A stretch of DNA of 64,000 bases from a virus. Below are positions 1,529-30,663 of this stretch, piece after piece; positions within the stretch are counted from its first letter, which is position 1; each line of letters opens with the position of its first letter. Made by a program: the position numbers and the translations under genes. The stretch is from IMG/VR virus record IMGVR_UViG_3300026197_000002, positions 1 to 64,000 of that record; one strand, 5' to 3'. A model generated the notes under the pieces. The model saw only the letters and a list, made by a program, of their open reading frames with translations. It was not told where the DNA came from and ran no database searches.

Positions 1529-1884
1529 TAGGAGAACCAAAAAATACTAGACTAACGTTACTAGAACAATGGGGGGATGTTTCTCCATTTTCTCTTCAAA
1601 AAATTCATAAGTTTTTTAACACTTTAAATAATCTATCAATCATAGAAACCAGAAAAAGTACACTTTCTAGTACATCTATCTATGAAATGATAATAGAGTA
1701 TAAAGGTGTAAAAATAGTACTTACTCAACATCATGCCCACGTGGTAATATCAAAATTGACAAAAGATGGAGAACAATCTTTTGTTACTTCAGTTGATAAT
1801 ATGAAAGATGCGTTGATTGAAGTAGAAGAGATAGCGGCAGAAATTGAAATAGCGTATATGCAAAATTTAAAAGAAGCTATATGA
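1525..1884 (+). CDS. hypothetical protein
   Basis: 119-aa ORF, ATGA-coupled on both sides. Confidence 0.75.
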   Translation: MIGEPKNTRLTLLEQWGDVSPFSLQKIHKFFNTLNNLSIIETRKSTLSSTSIYEMIIEYKGVKIVLTQHHAHVVISKLTKDGEQSFVTSVDNMKDALIEVEEIAAEIEIAYMQNLKEAI

Positions 1885-8075: not shown

Positions 8076-8603
8076 ATGAACAATTTTAATAATACACAGA
8101 TGAATAATCAAAATAATGTAAACACTCAAAATAAAAAAGGGGATAATCAACAAACTGAAACTTTTGTAAGTAATTACCCAATCATTCCATTAGATAAATT
8201 TAAGAATGAATATAAAGTTATTACAGAAGAAGGTAAGTGGGAATTACAAGTGCAAACTGTAAGTGACAAGACTTTTACCAATACTATCTTAGATAGAGAA
8301 GAACGCATCATTAATCTCAAAGCTATTAACTTTGCAGATGTAGATGCTATCAGACAAATTGTAGAAAGTAATAACAGTAAAGGTATTTACTATGAACAAC
8401 TTAACAATTTTGCAATGCGTGTAAACGTAGATAGTGATAGACCAACACCTATTAAAGGAGAAATTATTGATGCACACGTACATAGTTATACTAGAAAGCA
8501 CGATAGAGGTGAAGGTAAAGAAGCAGGTACTGATGTCTTAGTGGTAAGAGATATTAGCTTAAAGCCTGGTAAAAAGCCTATGAACCTTGCAGAATTACTA
8601 TAA
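8076..8603 (+). CDS. hypothetical protein (start may be ATG 8100)
   Basis: 175-aa ORF; N/Q-rich N-terminus. Confidence 0.75.
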   Translation: MNNFNNTQMNNQNNVNTQNKKGDNQQTETFVSNYPIIPLDKFKNEYKVITEEGKWELQVQTVSDKTFTNTILDREERIINLKAINFADVDAIRQIVESNNSKGIYYEQLNNFAMRVNVDSDRPTPIKGEIIDAHVHSYTRKHDRGEGKEAGTDVLVVRDISLKPGKKPMNLAELL

Positions 8604-8854
8604 TGAAATGTATCAAGTTAAGTTATAAAAGTTATATCCTCTATTTTAATACAATAGAGGATATAAATAATGGTGATGTTATACAGATAGGTTCTATATT
8701 ATATAGAGTTTCTTATGTATATCTATCATCTTTTAGGTATCACAGGATTAGTGATGATGTACCTACAATGTATATCAATCCTAATAATAGATATAATTAT
8801 AAAGTTATATCTGAACTAAGGTTAAGAAACTCCCCTTACAATGAGTTTCAATAA
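8603..8854 (+). CDS. hypothetical protein
   Basis: TAATG-coupled 83-aa ORF. Confidence 0.7.
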   Translation: MKCIKLSYKSYILYFNTIEDINNGDVIQIGSILYRVSYVYLSSFRYHRISDDVPTMYINPNNRYNYKVISELRLRNSPYNEFQ

Positions 8855-13173: not shown

Positions 13174-15237
13174 ATGAAATACATTTATGATATAGAAGTA
13201 TATCCTAATTTCTATTCCATAGTATTTTATGATGTTGATAGAAATACGTGGTTATATTTCTATTATCTAAATGGTATATGGGAAGGAAATATAGAATACA
13301 AAGATTTACTTATAGTTAAACAAGGATTTCTTATAGGATATAATAGTAATAACTATGATATACATATTCTAAATGAAATTACTAAGAGTTCTAATGTACC
13401 ACAGTCTAATAGTAGAGTTTACAGGCTAAGCTGTGATATTATAGAAAATTCTAAAAGATTATGGAATAATAATCCCAAATCTATTGACTTAGCTACTCAC
13501 ATATTCAATGGTGTACCTGATAGTCTTAAACTTATGGGATGTAAAGTTAATCACCCTAAATTACAAGAATTACCTATTGACCCACATAATAATATATCTG
13601 AAAATGATATAGAACTTATTATGTCTTATAATAAAAATGATGTTGAAATAACACATTCAATATATGAAAAGGTAAAATCTAAACTTAACAGTAGACTTGG
13701 ACAAGGTAAGTTATTTGGTAATTCTGAATTAGATTATTTATCAGATAATGATAGTTGGTTAGCAGGTAAAGCTATTAAAAATGCCTATATGAATATTACA
13801 GGATGTGATTATCAATATCTTAAATCATTGGCTAATAACGATAGACTTATATTATTAGAAGAATGTATCCTAGAACATAATAGGGAACTATGGGATAAAG
13901 TAGGTAATCAATGGGATATACAAGATTGGTATAGATATTACAGTACTCTTGAATATCCAACAGTATCATCTAGTAAGATATTACCTATAAAATTGAATAA
14001 TACAAGTTATCAATTAGGTTATGGTGGAATACATAGTGAAGATGATGCTAGGTTTATAATACCTGATTCAGGTTATAAATTAATAGATGCTGATGTAGCA
14101 TCACAATACCCTAATAAGATTGTTAATAGAAGTATTATAAATCCTAAATTGGATAAAAGATTATTAAAATGGTATGAAACTATAATATCTGACAGATTAG
14201 AATACAAGGCTTTGTATTCTAAGTATAAGAAATCTAATGCTGAATTAGCTAATAAATATAAAAAGGAATCAGATGATAGAAAAATTGTTATCAACAGTTT
14301 CTTTGGTAAATATAAGCAAAAAGGTTTCTTATTATATGACCCTAAATCATTATTACAAGTTACAGTTAATAATCAATTAGAAATACTGTATCTAATATAT
14401 ATGATGGAAATAAATGGTTTTGAAGTATTTACAGCTAATACTGATGGTTTTACTACAAAAGTACCTATATCTAGGGAACAAGAGTACTATGATATATGTA
14501 AGGAATGGGAATCTATTATGCAAATGGATTTAGAATATGCTGAATATCACAGCATGTATCAAACATCTGTTAATAGTTATATAGCTGTTCCACAATACGC
14601 TGTAAATGATACCATCAACTTAGATTATTGTAAATATAAAAATGATTTTCTAACAGATATATCATTAACCAAAGGATATTTTAGTAGAGCTATACCGTTA
14701 GCTTTACAAGCCTATTTTCTAAAAGATACTTCTATAGAAGACTATTTGAATGTAGGAAATCCTAGTCTTACAATATATGACTTTTGTAATTCACAGAAAG
14801 TTGGTAAACAGTTTAAAGTATATTATGGAGATAATGAAGTTCAACATATTAATAGATTTTATATCAGTACTGATGGTAAAACATTGGTTAAAAAAAATGA
14901 TGATAGAACTACATCTATTGTGGCAAATGAATATGTTACTTTAATGAATGATATAGATAATGAAGAATTGAGATATTATGGTAATCTTAAATATGATTAT
15001 TATATTAAAAAATGTTATGAAATAATAGATAAAATTATGAATAAATTTTTAATAACTATTAGAGTACAAAAAGAATCAGATATACAATCTTATGTCAGAC
15101 GTACTAAGAAGAGTAAGAAAGAAGTATATAAAGAAGTTGAAAAAGCATTAAATAAAATATATGGAGAATATACTTTTACACTCCAAGTATCAGATTTTGA
15201 TGAAATTCCTAGATATAATAAAAAAAATTTAAAATAA
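13174..15237 (+). CDS. polB: family B DNA polymerase (crAss type)
   Basis: Exonuclease motifs YDIEVYPN, GYNSNNYD, YNKNDV; polymerase motifs DADVASQYP, KIVINSFFGK, ANTDG. Confidence 0.95.
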   Translation: MKYIYDIEVYPNFYSIVFYDVDRNTWLYFYYLNGIWEGNIEYKDLLIVKQGFLIGYNSNNYDIHILNEITKSSNVPQSNSRVYRLSCDIIENSKRLWNNNPKSIDLATHIFNGVPDSLKLMGCKVNHPKLQELPIDPHNNISENDIELIMSYNKNDVEITHSIYEKVKSKLNSRLGQGKLFGNSELDYLSDNDSWLAGKAIKNAYMNITGCDYQYLKSLANNDRLILLEECILEHNRELWDKVGNQWDIQDWYRYYSTLEYPTVSSSKILPIKLNNTSYQLGYGGIHSEDDARFIIPDSGYKLIDADVASQYPNKIVNRSIINPKLDKRLLKWYETIISDRLEYKALYSKYKKSNAELANKYKKESDDRKIVINSFFGKYKQKGFLLYDPKSLLQVTVNNQLEILYLIYMMEINGFEVFTANTDGFTTKVPISREQEYYDICKEWESIMQMDLEYAEYHSMYQTSVNSYIAVPQYAVNDTINLDYCKYKNDFLTDISLTKGYFSRAIPLALQAYFLKDTSIEDYLNVGNPSLTIYDFCNSQKVGKQFKVYYGDNEVQHINRFYISTDGKTLVKKNDDRTTSIVANEYVTLMNDIDNEELRYYGNLKYDYYIKKCYEIIDKIMNKFLITIRVQKESDIQSYVRRTKKSKKEVYKEVEKALNKIYGEYTFTLQVSDFDEIPRYNKKNLK

Positions 15238-15245
15238 CTACAACA

Positions 15246-15821
15246 ATGAATAAAAAGTCTTTGGAAAAAGTAGAATCAATAGGTACAGCACCTATTATAT
15301 ATGTTATAGCTGCTAGTACAGCATTATTATTAGCATTAAACTTATTGTTGATATATAATGTATCATCATATTTAGCAACAGCTAATAATAATACTAGCAT
15401 ATTACAATGGTTAGGTATGTCTGCCATAGCATCTATTATGGGAATGTCAATACCTAATATTAAATATATGGATAGTCAAGAAAACACTTCTAAGATAGAG
15501 AGTGTTATTATTATGGTTATGGGAGGATTAATTATATCTATACAAGGATTTATAATTTATAATCTTATAACAACTAATTTAGATAGTCAAGCACAAGTAT
15601 TAGCTATATTTAATGTAGCATTAGGTATTGCAGTAGATGTAATACTAGGATTATTGGCTACTAAAAAAGTAAAAGAGATAATGGGAGTAGTAGATAATAC
15701 TTCTACTAAATCCACAAATACAGCTAGTACTTCCAATAATAATACAGTAAATTCTAGTAGTTCTACTACTAAATCTAGTGTTCCTGTTAAAGTTAAAAAA
15801 AAGGATAAGGAAAAAAAGTAA
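15246..15821 (+). CDS. 4-TM membrane protein; upstream partner of a -1 frameshift fusion
   Basis: Four hydrophobic helices, S/T/N-rich linker, ends GAA AAA AAG TAA. Confidence 0.85.
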   Translation: MNKKSLEKVESIGTAPIIYVIAASTALLLALNLLLIYNVSSYLATANNNTSILQWLGMSAIASIMGMSIPNIKYMDSQENTSKIESVIIMVMGGLIISIQGFIIYNLITTNLDSQAQVLAIFNVALGIAVDVILGLLATKKVKEIMGVVDNTSTKSTNTASTSNNNTVNSSSSTTKSSVPVKVKKKDKEKK

Positions 15822-15902
15822 CTGACCAAGTTCAAGAACAACATTATAAAACTCTATTAGATGAAGTATTAGATTATACAATAGAGCATTTGAACTTGGT
15901 CA
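15812..15902 (+). promoter_or_regulatory. programmed -1 ribosomal frameshift signal
   Basis: A_AAA_AAG at 15812-15818; 13-bp perfect stem 15823-15835/15890-15902; inner 7-bp stem 15852-15858/15880-15886. Confidence 0.85.
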
Positions 15903-16765
15903 AAAAAGATGATTTTAAAGAGGATGTATTTGATAGTTATCATACTTTAACAAGAAATGATACTGAAATTAAATGGTTTTATGAAGAATTATTAGAAATA
16001 TCTGATAAATTAGGAGATGTTGTTAATAAAGTAGATGAATTACATTTAGGTATTGATAAACACATAAACACCTTAAAATCTATGCAATCTTCAAAACAAA
16101 TGTTAGAAGAAGGTGGTAAAGGTAGTCATAATACTGTTGAAAGACAGAATAAAATAGAGGAATTAGAAGAATCTATTAATAAACATCAGGTAACTATAGA
16201 ACTATTGAAGAAACAACTAGAAGTATCTAATGATGACTATGATAACGTAATAGATTCTATTATTGAAATATTAGAACAATATTTTAAGATATATATTTCA
16301 GACTATAATAATGAATTAGTAGTATCTGTAAAAGATATGGACTTTACATCTACTGATAAAGAAGATGTTAGAAGATTAGCTACTAATACTGCTGATTTTA
16401 TAACTCCTTATAGAAAATTCTCTACTACTGAATTAGAAGAATTAGAATATTATTATATGAATAAGAATGTTGAAGAATATTCTAATAAAGTAGCTTATGT
16501 AGAAATGCTTATTAATTCTGCTATTGCTGATAAAAGTAATACTAATAGACATGGTAATATAAGAGGTAGGTTAGAAGGTACTATTACTTATGATACTGCG
16601 GAAGCTACTAATTTTATGATAATATCTAATAAGGTATTTGATGTAGAAAAAGCAGAAGATGAAGATGTTGATGAATTATTACAATGGTTAGTTAGTGTAG
16701 ATGTAATTAATTTTAAAGATATATCAAATTTCTATAATAATGAAATAATAAACGACAATATATGA
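15818..16765 (+). CDS. acidic coiled-coil extension reached by -1 frameshift (fusion about 506 aa)
   Basis: The -1 frame is open from 15809 with no ATG near its start; the TTG at 15890 lies inside the stem. Confidence 0.8.
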   Translation, partial: VTDQVQEQHYKTLLDEVLDYTIEHLNLVKKDDFKEDVFDSYHTLTRNDTEIKWFYEELLEISDKLGDVVNKVDELHLGIDKHINTLKSMQSSKQMLEEGGKGSHNTVERQNKIEELEESINKHQVTIELLKKQLEVSNDDYDNVIDSIIEILEQYFKIYISDYNNELVVSVKDMDFTSTDKEDVRRLATNTADFITPYRKFSTTELEELEYYYMNKNVEEYSNKVAYVEMLINSAIADKSNTNRHGNIRGRLEGTITYDTAEATNFMIISNKVFDVEKAEDEDVDELLQWLVSVDVINFKDISNFYNNEIINDNI

Positions 16766-17973
16766 AAAGAAGAGATATAGAAAAACAAGCGTCTAGTATA
16801 TTTAATGAGTATCATAATATATTATTAGAACTTGCAACAGGTTTTGGTAAAACATCATTAGCTCTTAAATTACTAGATGGTAGAAAAAAGAATCTCATTG
16901 TTGTACCCTATGATTCTATTAAAGACTCTTGGAAAAATGAGGATAAGAAATGGTTTAACGGTAAGAAGTTAGGTAAATCTGATATTATTACTTATCAATC
17001 ATTACATAAAGTTAAAGATATATATGATGCTGTAGTATTAGATGAATGTCATCATATTACAAGTAATAATTTAGGATATGTTAAAGATTTGAATAGTAAT
17101 ATTATAGCTCTTAGTGCTACTGTTGATACTGATAAAAAAGTATTATTATTTGAATTAGGTATTAATAAGATTAATACTATTAGAGTTACAACAGATTCTG
17201 CTATTGATAACGAGGTATTACCAGATTATCGTATGGTAGTATGGAAATTAAATATGGATTATCAGAATAAAAATATACCTATTAAATATAGTAAGAATGG
17301 TAAAAAACAAACATTTTATACTACAGAAGGAGATAATTATAGTTATATTAATGATAACTTTTCTAAAATACAACAATTATTTTATGCAAATGATTTAGAC
17401 CCTTTTAAAATGGCATTTAATAAAGCGTATGTAAAAAAGGTTAATACAGGTAATTCTGATAAAGATAAATTTCTTAAAAGTAGAGGGTTTCTATTCTCTA
17501 ATTATATGAGAAAAAGAAAAGATTTAATATATCAATCTCCTACTAAAAAGACTTATATTAATAAGATTATTAATGAAATGAGAAGGTTAAATAAAAGATT
17601 TATATGTTTTGTAGGAACTATTAATATGTGTAATGAGTTATCTTCTAGCACATACCATAGCAAGATGACTGATGATGCTAAAATTAAAGCATTAGATGAT
17701 TTCAATAATGGTGTAACTAATGAATTATTTGCAGTTAATGCTTTAGATGAAGGAGTTAATTTAAAAGATGTAGAGGTTGGTATTATTGGTCAAATTAATA
17801 GTAAAGAGAGGAGATTAGTTCAACGTCTAGGTAGATTACTTAGAGGTGATAGTGAGCAAATGAATACTTTATACATTACAGTATTAAAAGATACTCAAGA
17901 TGAAAAATGGTTTCATTCTGCTACACAAGATATAGATAAAAACAAAATACAATATGAAGAATATGAAGGATAG
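16762..17973 (+). CDS. superfamily 2 DExH helicase
   Basis: LATGFGKT, LDECHH, LSAT, LDEGVNL, QRLGRLLR. Confidence 0.92.
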   Translation: MKRRDIEKQASSIFNEYHNILLELATGFGKTSLALKLLDGRKKNLIVVPYDSIKDSWKNEDKKWFNGKKLGKSDIITYQSLHKVKDIYDAVVLDECHHITSNNLGYVKDLNSNIIALSATVDTDKKVLLFELGINKINTIRVTTDSAIDNEVLPDYRMVVWKLNMDYQNKNIPIKYSKNGKKQTFYTTEGDNYSYINDNFSKIQQLFYANDLDPFKMAFNKAYVKKVNTGNSDKDKFLKSRGFLFSNYMRKRKDLIYQSPTKKTYINKIINEMRRLNKRFICFVGTINMCNELSSSTYHSKMTDDAKIKALDDFNNGVTNELFAVNALDEGVNLKDVEVGIIGQINSKERRLVQRLGRLLRGDSEQMNTLYITVLKDTQDEKWFHSATQDIDKNKIQYEEYEG

Positions 17974-18475
17974 TGAAAAAAGAAGATTATTAGCATCTAC
18001 TTTTAATAGTAGACAAGAGGTTTTTGACTTTTTATCAGAGCTTATTATTGAAATAAATGGAAAATATAAAATAGATGGAACATTATCAGAACTATATAAT
18101 ACAATTCCAACTGTTGATACACAATTATCAGAAACAGAAATGGATAATGAATTGTCAGTTGTACCTAAATTAAGTTTTACTGAAACTGTTAAAAGATTTA
18201 GAACTTGTATAGGAAACCCTATGAGGTATAATAAAGATACTAAAAAATCTTATAGTATTGATGGAATAAATAGTAATACTATGAGGTCATTACGCAGTTT
18301 ATATAATAAAGGTATATTTAATCAAGAATTTATAGAAAATGCTAGGAACTACTATGGTGATATAGAATACCCTGTTGGACTCAATAGGTATATAACAGAT
18401 AAACTATATGATTCAAATTGGTCTATCAGTAAAAAAGATAATACTACAGGCTTAACAGGTTGGAGTAAAAGATGA
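17954..18475 (+). CDS. hypothetical protein, possible replication initiator/helicase loader
   Basis: Position directly upstream of and coupled to the DnaB-like gene; no firm motif. Confidence 0.6.
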   Translation: MKNMKDSEKRRLLASTFNSRQEVFDFLSELIIEINGKYKIDGTLSELYNTIPTVDTQLSETEMDNELSVVPKLSFTETVKRFRTCIGNPMRYNKDTKKSYSIDGINSNTMRSLRSLYNKGIFNQEFIENARNYYGDIEYPVGLNRYITDKLYDSNWSISKKDNTTGLTGWSKR

Positions 18476-19614
18476 ATGCAGATACATTAAGAGATATAAT
18501 TATAGAATCTAAAACTAGAAGTGAAACAGGGTTTAATAGTATTATGTTACCTGATGAATTTCCTAGTCTTATGAATACATATCCTGGATGGGTAAAAGGT
18601 GAATATTATTGTATTACTGCTAGTACTAATGTAGGTAAAACTAAGTTCACTAAATTTATTACAGTATATGGTATTTATAAGTTTTGTAAAGATAATAATA
18701 TACCATTTCATTTGAGGTGGTATGCTTTAGAAGAAGATGAAGAAGAGTTTTGGCTATCTATAACTTGTATGTTGATGTATAAGGTATGTGATATAAATAT
18801 ATCTATAAAGACCTTGAAATCACTAGGTACTAATAGGTTATCTAAGGAACAACTAGAAGCTTATGATAGAATAAAGCCTATATTAGATGATATGATGAAA
18901 TCTATTATAGTTATAGATTATATATATCATCCAACAGGTATATATTATGACTTTTTACAATATGCTGACATAAAAGGTAAATTTGCTAAGTTAGATAATG
19001 ATGGTGATATTAAAGCATTACCTAAGATGTTTAATAATGGTGAAAAGACATCACAATCTTATGATTATTATTATCCAGAGAATGAAGATGAATATGTATT
19101 TATAATAATAGACCATATATCTTTATTGAAACCTGAAAATAAACAAAATCTTAGAGAAGCAATAGAGATGATGTCTAGGGAATATTTACTTAAAAAAGCT
19201 CAAAAAGTATTAAAGTATATACCTATTGTAGTACACCAACAAGCATTAGATAGTGCTAAGGAACAATATACCTATAAGGGTGAAACAGTTATACAAAAAG
19301 TTATGCCTTCCTTAGCAGAATTAGGTGAGAATAGAACTGTTAGTAGAGATTATAGAGTAGTTATGGGATTATTTATGCCACACAAACATCAAATATCGGA
19401 ATTTCTAGGATATGATATTACTAAGCTAAAAGAACAATGTGTTTTCTTATTCTTCTTAAAAGATAGATTATATGGAAATGCTACATCTTTTGTACCATTA
19501 TTATTTAATGGTGCTAATAATACATATAAAGAAATGCCTACTTATGATAGTGATGCTATGCAGATAATATATGATGGTATAGATGAAGCTAGACAAATTA
19601 TAGAAAATTCATAG
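18472..19614 (+). CDS. dnaB: DnaB-like replicative helicase
   Basis: Walker A ASTNVGKTK, ALEE, IIIDHISLL, VVHQQ, RDYRVVMGLF. Confidence 0.88.
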   Translation: MNADTLRDIIIESKTRSETGFNSIMLPDEFPSLMNTYPGWVKGEYYCITASTNVGKTKFTKFITVYGIYKFCKDNNIPFHLRWYALEEDEEEFWLSITCMLMYKVCDINISIKTLKSLGTNRLSKEQLEAYDRIKPILDDMMKSIIVIDYIYHPTGIYYDFLQYADIKGKFAKLDNDGDIKALPKMFNNGEKTSQSYDYYYPENEDEYVFIIIDHISLLKPENKQNLREAIEMMSREYLLKKAQKVLKYIPIVVHQQALDSAKEQYTYKGETVIQKVMPSLAELGENRTVSRDYRVVMGLFMPHKHQISEFLGYDITKLKEQCVFLFFLKDRLYGNATSFVPLLFNGANNTYKEMPTYDSDAMQIIYDGIDEARQIIENS

Positions 19615-19648: not shown

Positions 19649-20407
19649 ATGGGATTAATTCCACAAGTAGGAGATGTTACTGAAAAGAAATATACATCAC
19701 CTAAATCAATAGTAATTTATGGTAAACCAAAAACAGGTAAAACTACTGTTGCTTCACAATTGCCACAAGATAAATATCTTATGGTAGATTTAGATAATGG
19801 AGCATACTTTTTAGATGTAGTAAAAACGGGTGCTATTAATACACTATCTGATTTTGAACAAGCTGTTGGTGAATTAATGATGTTAAATAAAGATAATGGT
19901 GGTAAACCATTATTCAAATATGGTGTCATTGATACTATTAGTAAATTAGAAGATTTAGCAATATCAGCAGGTGCTAGATTGTATAAGAATAGCTCAATAG
20001 GTAAAAATTGGGAAGGTGAAGATAGTGATTTACTAAATTTACCAAGAGGTGCAGGATATGGTTACCTTAGAACAGCCTTTATTAAAATGGTAGATGTATT
20101 AAATACATTATTTGAACATATTATTTATATAGGTCATGTAAAAGATTCTAGTATTAGTAAGAATGGTAAAGAAGTTAATGTTACTGATATAGACCTTATA
20201 GGTAAGAATAAGCAACTTATTAATAGTAATGTAGATGCTATTGCATATATGTATCGTGAAGATGATGGATTACATATAACATTCAAATCATCTGATGAAA
20301 TATTGTGTGGTAGTAGAACACCTAATTTAAGAGGTAAAGATATACTATTTGCTGATACAGATGGTAGTAATGCCAAATGGGATTTAATATTTGGTAAAGA
20401 TTTATAG
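19649..20407 (+). CDS. AAA ATPase (Sak4-like/AAA_24)
   Basis: IYGKPKTGKTT, VIDTISKLED, GAGYGYLR, IGHVKD, VDAIAYM, GSR. Confidence 0.9.
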   Translation: MGLIPQVGDVTEKKYTSPKSIVIYGKPKTGKTTVASQLPQDKYLMVDLDNGAYFLDVVKTGAINTLSDFEQAVGELMMLNKDNGGKPLFKYGVIDTISKLEDLAISAGARLYKNSSIGKNWEGEDSDLLNLPRGAGYGYLRTAFIKMVDVLNTLFEHIIYIGHVKDSSISKNGKEVNVTDIDLIGKNKQLINSNVDAIAYMYREDDGLHITFKSSDEILCGSRTPNLRGKDILFADTDGSNAKWDLIFGKDL

Positions 20408-30397: not shown

Positions 30398-30663
30398 TGT
30401 GTAATCATAAATATATTCCTACATATAAGAAATGGATACCTACAAAAGATGGAAACTATATTAAGAAATATAGAGTACTTATATGTGAGAAATGTGGTAA
30501 AGATAAAATAAGTAAATCTCCTGAATCTAAATATAAAATTTTAGATGAAGGACTTAAAAAGATATACGATAAAGTATCTGAAAAACAAGAAGCCGAGTAT
30601 GTAAGAAATACTCATAAATTATTAGATAAATTCAACAATAAAATAGGAGATTTAAAATTATGA
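30397..30663 (+). CDS. small zinc-binding protein
   Basis: CNHKY...CEKCGK. Confidence 0.7.
   Translation: MCNHKYIPTYKKWIPTKDGNYIKKYRVLICEKCGKDKISKSPESKYKILDEGLKKIYDKVSEKQEAEYVRNTHKLLDKFNNKIGDLKL

Follow-up and report, generated by a model that had tools for sequence, protein, structure and literature searches.

A candidate programmed −1 frameshift cassette joining a membrane protein to an acidic helical domain in a phage replication module

Known frameshift cassettes and the locus

In Escherichia coli dnaX, the slip heptamer A_AAA_AAG, followed after a spacer of 6 nucleotides (nt) by a stem-loop that acts as a 3′ stimulator, gives rise to two isoforms, tau and gamma, which share their N-terminal part. 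An identical heptamer with a 3′ stem-loop is found at positions 15246 to 16765 of the virus record IMGVR_UViG_3300026197_000002, a record of 92,710 bp whose first 64 kb form the stretch analysed here (the window). At this locus, an open reading frame (ORF) for a membrane protein of 191 amino acids (aa) ends on the heptamer, and a second ORF of 315 codons continues in the −1 frame without an ATG near its start. The first-pass annotation of this DNA had read the pair as a dnaX/IS-type −1 frameshift gene. That proposal passed every intrinsic test that was run. On this intrinsic evidence, programmed −1 ribosomal frameshifting, in a cassette like those of dnaX and IS911, is the best reading of the locus and probably the correct one. 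It is the gene context that is new; the signal itself is known from textbooks.

The closest counterparts come from bacterial genes and mobile elements. The locus resembles the 'reversed' dnaX of some bacteria, in which the shift site is immediately followed by the 0-frame stop and the long product requires a shift (PMC5009743). However, there is no protein homology to dnaX, the stem found here is longer and branched, the spacer is 4 nt, and a stimulating element resembling a Shine-Dalgarno (SD) sequence is doubtful here. The orfA-orfB pairs of IS911 and the IS3 family of insertion sequences (IS) also carry A_AAA_AAG near the end of the upstream ORF, and the ORF downstream, placed in the −1 frame, lacks an efficient start. 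An elaborate branched 3′ structure is common to both, that of IS911 being a three-way junction (PMC5009743), whereas the structure described here is one long stem enclosing a smaller hairpin; furthermore, the locus is not a transposase gene and has no terminal repeats. Both dnaX and IS911 have an upstream stimulator of the SD type, which is not universal; cso2 cassettes are without a 5′ SD element (PMC5009743).

Among phage genes, lambda gpG/gpGT is similar: a shift into the −1 frame takes place a few codons ahead of its stop, and a minority of the molecules thereby gain a C-terminal domain. It differs in its heptamer (G_GGA_AAG), in its place in the tail module, in being soluble and in lacking a strong 3′ structure, while the present gene belongs to a replication module and encodes a membrane protein. 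In the SEA-PHAGES annotations, 2397 of the 2476 joined frameshift genes are of the tail assembly chaperone kind (PMC10885494).

Slip site, hairpin and coding joint

The elements of the locus are listed below, each with its basis in brackets.

15246-15821, plus strand: 0-frame ORF of 191 aa, ending AAA AAG TAA (sequence, translation)
15797-15803, plus strand: first in-phase A_AAA_AAG, preceding the main heptamer by 15 nt and located in an A8 run (sequence)
15812-15818, plus strand: slip heptamer A_AAA_AAG, over the two sense codons just before the 0-frame stop (X_XXY_YYZ phase verified by translation)
15818-16765, plus strand: −1 frame ORF of 315 codons plus TGA (translation)
15823-15836/15889-15902, plus strand: branched stem-loop whose outer stem has 13 Watson-Crick pairs and one G-U pair, 14 bp in all (folding)

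As had been claimed from the letters alone, the membrane ORF ends GAA (15810) AAA AAG (15816-15818) TAA (15819-15821) with A_AAA_AAG in phase; the A7 run occupies 15811-15817, and the stop codon TAA at 15819-15821 stands immediately 3′ of the heptamer. In the −1 frame, a TAA at 15806-15808 is followed by a frame open from 15809 to 16765. Both frames are open together over just 13 nt, with the heptamer at the centre. The absence of an ATG near the start of the −1 frame, also part of the first reading, was confirmed: the first in-frame ATG lies at 16082, there being none for 91 codons, and the only earlier non-ATG candidates are TTG 15890, TTG 15896 and ATA 15881. The junction peptide predicted for a slip, EKKVTDQVQEQHYK, in which ...DKEKK of the 0 frame is joined to VTDQVQEQHYK of the −1 frame, is correct by translation. 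The upstream heptamer at 15797-15803 is a dead end, where a −1 slip meets the TAA at 15806-15808 after one codon and would merely trim the tail of the protein. AAGGA and AAGGAA are present 1-10 nt 5′ of the heptamer at 15812-15818. Because the starts of this phage show no SD signal and G is depleted upstream of them, an SD-like stimulating effect of these motifs is doubtful.

The inverted repeat TGACCAAGTTCAA (15823-15835) / TTGAACTTGGTCA (15890-15902) is perfect over 13 Watson-Crick pairs and begins 4 nt after the heptamer. It encloses the 7-bp stem (15852-15858/15880-15886) that had been noticed at the outset, to which folding adds a G-U pair extending the outer stem (15836/15889) and a further inner stem of 4 bp (15861-15864/15874-15877). 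Both TTG candidates, 15890 and 15896, lie within the 3′ arm of the outer stem. The suggested folding check gave a stable branched stem with a minimum free energy (MFE) of −23.3 kcal/mol, at a z-score of −5.1 against dinucleotide shuffles, and the hairpin still folds when the context is widened to 181 nt. When the 31 codons were redrawn synonymously according to the codon usage of the phage, the mean MFE was −9.4 +/- 2.8 kcal/mol and none of 2000 versions reached −23.3 (z −5.0). Thus, the structure is not a by-product of the encoded peptide. Of the 90-nt stretches that follow the 23 in-phase A_AAA_AAG heptamers of the phage genes, none folds as stably as this one. No Rfam family matched the hairpin, and it is not terminator-like. 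Perfect inverted repeats of at least 13 bp with a loop of at most 100 nt occur at four places in the 92.7 kb, starting at 8632, 15823, 87783 and 88527, where a Markov model expects 1.2.

The repeat at 8632-8666 of the window is a perfect 14-bp one with a 7-nt loop, its arms beginning at 8632 and 8653 (TATATCCTCTATT...AATAGAGGATATA); it lies about 30 nt inside an ORF (8603-8854) and is not followed by a T-run.

The coding signal was found to change frame at the heptamer. In a sliding window, it moves from frame 0 to frame −1 at this point, and the 24 codons upstream of the first TTG (15818-15889) have a codon-usage log-odds of +10.9, as compared with 12.8 +/- 5.2 for true frames. This value was reached by none of the 2210 off-frame windows, including the 113 that are stop-free, and by 1.7% of random stop-free sequences; freedom from stops over 24 codons is found in about 5% of off-frame windows. 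Among ORFs of at least 60 aa, all 97 start with ATG, in a set that was built on ATG only and covers 93% of the genome. On a start-context matrix, on which real starts average +3.1, TTG 15890 scores −2.4 and TTG 15896 scores −3.7, like internal decoys, while the start of the 191-aa ORF scores like real starts. Gene callers give the downstream product as an unfused protein of 289-291 aa on three assemblies, one of which holds the variant with 2 aa changes, and they disagree on the TTG used (15890 vs 15896).

In-phase shift-prone heptamers are common in the phage genes, with 23 copies of A_AAA_AAG and 25 of A_AAA_AAA among 256 Lys-Lys dipeptides, AAG making up 25% of the Lys codons. The heptamer alone is not beyond chance in this A-rich, lysine-rich genome. 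Only at 15812-15818, however, does such a heptamer fall on the two final sense codons of an ORF that is paired with a −1 frame partner devoid of its own ATG.

Another in-phase A_AAA_AAG lies at G000:C1:70450 (minus strand), about 6.4 kb past the end of the window, in the gene 70123-70617. The structure directly 3′ of it has −21.3 kcal/mol, the second best of the 23. The −1 frame ends there after 2 codons, so that a slip would leave a stump of about 58 aa of the 164-aa protein, whose C-terminus is a coiled coil with a transmembrane (TM) anchor; this is a layout like that of dnaX gamma.

The first-pass annotation had asked for the A7 run to be confirmed in reads, an extra A being enough to give one continuous ORF. 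The A7 run (15811-15817) and the hairpin are identical, without substitution or indel, in contigs of X1, X2 and X3, which are three runs of three studies from 2017-2021, with depths of about 16, 6 and 3.7; X1 may be the source sample, and X3, like a fourth run, X4, covers the stretch in part only. No A8 was seen, although the material consists of Logan contigs, which hide minor variants such as an A8 subpopulation. The exact 191-aa product is on record in a Joint Genome Institute (JGI) assembly and in a Logan/ENA assembly. In addition, a 99%-identical variant, P0001, with 2 aa changes, is found on a JGI contig of 23,413 nt.

Both ORFs are otherwise orphans in the databases searched. Comparison of both with Pfam, PHROGs, NCBIfam and PADLOC gave just sub-threshold generic matches. 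A 5.8 G protein search yielded no relatives for either ORF at near length, nor for the TM ORF at longer length, and HMMER, run with the 315-aa part through all of 1.84 G representatives, returned just the near-identical P0001. There was no usable match in the ESM Atlas and no relevant one in a sequence search of the PDB; Foldseek against the PDB, run with a low-confidence model, gave just generic coiled-coil rows at E>0.2. Relatives were likewise not found by searching contigs from viruses and metagenomes with protein patterns, by DNA-pattern scans allowing A6-A9, which may be blind to near-identical records, or by blastn against GenBank phages.

Proposed products and competing explanations

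The first reading had described the products as a four-TM membrane protein and a coiled-coil domain. The membrane part stood: the 191-aa product has four hydrophobic helices, at about 15-45, 50-67, 78-109 and 115-137, of which the second is weakly hydrophobic, and all four are nevertheless modelled and fit the positive-inside rule. The protein has a basic N-terminus and, after helix 4, a very basic stretch; by the same rule, both of its ends are predicted to be cytoplasmic. Residues 139-191 form a tail of 53 aa which is basic (isoelectric point, pI, 10.2), low-complexity, rich in S, T, N and K and predicted to be disordered, and which looks like a linker rather than a C-terminus. The coiled coil held in part. 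The 315-aa part is acidic (pI 4.5, with 67 D+E vs 33 K+R) and mostly helical; a helical hairpin is modelled confidently by AlphaFold at about residues 48-172 and the remainder poorly, so the term coiled coil is supported for about residues 48-172 only. It is based on two long confident helices in a low-confidence model and on sub-threshold matches to generic coiled-coil families of Pfam. The AlphaFold models of both parts are of low confidence as a whole, with predicted local distance difference test (pLDDT) values of 52.6 and 51.4.

Under programmed frameshifting, ribosomes translating the 191-aa ORF would reach A_AAA_AAG while the 14-bp stem, 4 nt downstream, sits at the mRNA entrance. Most of them would stop at the adjacent TAA and release the 191-aa four-helix inner-membrane protein, both ends of which are predicted to be cytoplasmic. 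At the two lysine codons, a fraction may move back by one base and translate on in the −1 frame, giving a product of about 506 aa (57 kDa), in which the S/T/N/K-rich tail would act as a linker to the 315-aa acidic, largely helical cytoplasmic domain. The efficiency of such slipping would set the ratio of the two forms, and these may assemble together in the membrane through their common TM part. We favour this explanation since it is the simplest account of all the features together.

Several observations weigh against it. The spacer between heptamer and stem is 4 nt (15819-15822), shorter than the usual 5-9 nt, although other lengths are known (PMC5009743). Folding nearly equal to that of the hairpin is found in about 2.7% of all 90-nt coding windows, and the log-odds of +10.9 was reached by 11% of intergenic stop-free windows. 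Homologues of either ORF, in which conservation and covariation of the slip site and stem could be read, are limited to copies of about 99% identity, which keep the unfused layout, and the contigs of the three runs show the sampled population to be nearly clonal. Shift-prone heptamers are not avoided in the phage genes. This lack of avoidance points to low intrinsic slipperiness in the host, where the heptamer by itself evidently does no harm. A harmless heptamer agrees with a host that has a separate tRNA-Lys(CUU), AAG then being less slippery; a single tRNA-Lys is found in about half of bacteria (PMC5009743). Finally, five other junctions have an X_XXY_YYZ heptamer within 15 nt of a stop and the next gene in the −1 frame:

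1507-1522, window
1863-1872, window
15222-15234, window
30651-30657, window
71193-71196, minus strand (G000:C1:71193-71196)

Each of these junctions includes an ATG for the gene that follows, and they therefore serve as chance controls.

As to tRNAs supplied by the phage, the sole one found by ARAGORN in the 92.7-kb record is a tRNA-Met (CAT) at G000:C1:64125-64199 (minus strand), and the phage itself is without a tRNA-Lys able to affect decoding of the slip site.

One alternative takes the two ORFs as independent cistrons, the second starting at TTG 15890, TTG 15896 or another non-ATG codon, and the hairpin as a coupling or regulatory device. In the coupling version, a ribosome terminating at 15821 would melt the 5′ arm and expose the TTGs of the 3′ arm. 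The geometry is indeed the classical one for structure-mediated coupling, with both TTGs in the 3′ arm and the 5′ arm starting 2 nt after the stop; two gene callers picked these TTGs, and a gap of 68 nt is ordinary, 11 of the 55 same-strand gaps being at least as long. However, every other long ORF in the ATG-only set has an ATG start, the contexts of the TTGs are like those of internal codons, and the callers are split between them. The 24 codons before the first TTG are stop-free and of coding-type usage, and the phage uses no SD sequence that could direct re-initiation. Initiation at TTG 15890, which the first-pass annotation had itself named as an outcome that would overturn its proposal, thus has a decoy-like start context and is kept as an unlikely rival. 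The locus could also be a decaying gene, in which the deletion of one A (A8 to A7) from a single ORF of about 506 aa became fixed, leaving just the 191-aa stump and error-level slippage. The hairpin would then be a separate matter, such as an element acting at the DNA level or on RNA stability. Indels are commonest in homopolymer runs, an orphan in the variable slot between polB and the helicase may be dispensable, and recent fixation would look alike in a near-clonal sample. Decay nevertheless needs a series of coincidences: the break would have fallen on the most shift-prone bacterial heptamer and in the right phase, the stops of both frames would happen to bracket this heptamer within 13 nt, and one of the four long perfect repeats of the genome would happen to start 4 nt further on. 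Moreover, the downstream ORF stays open for 315 codons and its codon usage is normal, and the same configuration is present in samples from 2017 to 2021 and in the 99%-identical variant; we regard decay, too, as unlikely.

The same 506-aa protein would result from transcriptional slippage, if an RNA polymerase of the host or the phage added one A in the A7 run of some transcripts, since the extra A gives exactly the same amino-acid sequence. Slippage of this kind is an established alternative in dnaX and IS elements (PMC5009743). On the other hand, the genome has 68 runs of at least seven A on its two strands, and efficient slippage at A7 would therefore damage many genes. The A/T runs that are productive in bacteria usually have about 9 or more residues, above the length of A7, and a 3′ RNA hairpin is not expected to help this process, yet it is the most non-random feature of the locus. 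Together, these points make transcriptional slippage improbable. The poorest candidate is a sequencing or assembly error, in which case the true sequence would have A8 and one uninterrupted ORF. Some platforms do make errors in homopolymers, and the public evidence consists of contigs, but A7 is identical and free of indels in three runs of three studies and the 191-aa product is on record from two assemblies, which makes such an error very unlikely.

Neighbourhood, relatives and possible role

The gene pair lies in a block of replication genes, in the order polB, 191-aa ORF, −1 frame ORF, SNF2/DEAD-like helicase, 173-aa ORF, DnaB-like helicase and Sak4-like protein:

13174-15237, plus strand: family-B DNA polymerase gene (polB), 687 aa, the upstream neighbour (PHROG 1252 'DNA polymerase', E 9.5e-103)
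16762-17973, plus strand: SNF2/DEAD-like helicase gene (Pfam Helicase_C and ResIII; PHROG 16; start by sequence)
Between the two helicase genes: 173-aa ORF (by its order in the block)
18472-19614: DnaB-like helicase gene
19649-20407: Sak4-like annealing protein gene

This block is tightly packed, with a median same-strand gap of 1 nt. It belongs to a plus-strand arm (84-31,822), toward which a minus-strand arm with a 5,392-aa ORF converges, in DNA with a G+C content of 27%. The public runs holding the stretch are mostly soil metagenomes. A sigma-70 promoter scan gave background level only, and no terminator was found.

At 16762-16765, the sequence ATGA lets the TGA of the −1 frame ORF share bases with the ATG of the SNF2/DEAD-like helicase gene. 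Frame-shifted ribosomes would thus end exactly on the helicase start, and coupling with the helicase is possible.

Gene starts throughout the genome show no SD signal; A is enriched in their leaders (−14 to −11, and −3) and G is scarce. Leaders of this kind, A-rich and G-poor without an SD sequence, are typical of Bacteroidota, and the pattern suggests a Bacteroidota-type host. No productive −1 frameshifting outside housekeeping genes is known to us in Bacteroidota, a point on which no literature search was made.

The place taken by the ORF pair is a variable accessory slot. A search with polB gave one distant relative, L002, and a helicase alignment comprised 80 loci; in these relatives, the position ahead of the helicase is filled by genes that are unrelated, often acidic, and without a match to either ORF, for example:

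L002:4823-5026: a 67-aa soluble protein
L003:4217-4984: a 255-aa protein
L021:2221-4989: a string of five genes, the first encoding a 369-aa protein

Since both ORFs are orphans and the slot in the relatives is filled by unrelated genes, the pair is a lineage-specific insert in a variable slot.

As for function, the roles put forward in the first-pass annotation, a replisome anchor, an exclusion device or a division-blocking device, gained no support, and the analysis gave nothing for or against a fixed isoform ratio or a mixed membrane complex. The phage protein phi29 p16.7 offers an analogy, though a functional one only. It is a membrane-anchored coiled-coil protein of a phage with a family-B polymerase, and it organises membrane-associated replication (PMC11476376). 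Unlike the present gene product, it is small, has one N-terminal TM helix and involves no recoding, and the 315-aa domain is strongly acidic. A p16.7-like replication organiser was rejected in terms of homology: the sequence search of the PDB brought up no chain of p16.7 at E<=10, Foldseek with the low-confidence model gave just generic coiled-coil rows, and the 315-aa domain has a pI of 4.5. Another candidate considered was a pair of the lambda RexA/RexB type, that is, a 4-TM protein with a soluble partner of about 300 aa. No Rex family was found in Pfam at E<=10, there was no RexA chain among the Foldseek rows, which were obtained with a weak model, and the gene order is the reverse of rexA-rexB; this candidate was dropped as well. 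PADLOC matched no defence family.

Because the gene is co-oriented and tightly packed with its neighbours and its final stop overlaps the helicase start, co-expression with the replisome is likely. As a best guess, the product is an accessory factor, tethered to the membrane and expressed together with the replication genes, whose long arm would face the cytoplasm. It is a much more speculative idea, and a doubtful one, that frameshifting sets the ratio of bare four-helix forms to forms with an acidic coiled-coil arm, and that their mixed assembly tethers or organises the replisome at the inner membrane. Such a replisome would comprise polB, the SNF2-like and DnaB-like helicases and the Sak4-like protein, and the assembly might then be a functional analogue of phi29 p16.7 in a host group that is probably Bacteroidota; this extension, too, we hold to be a long shot.

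Gene callers now give the locus as two 'hypothetical proteins' with arbitrary TTG starts. Its present value is that of a clean, testable candidate rather than of a new mechanism. If the frameshift is real, it would be a case of recoding in the replication module of a phage whose starts are without Shine-Dalgarno sequences, and a −1 frameshift in the gene of a non-structural membrane protein would widen the range of phage genes that are recoded.

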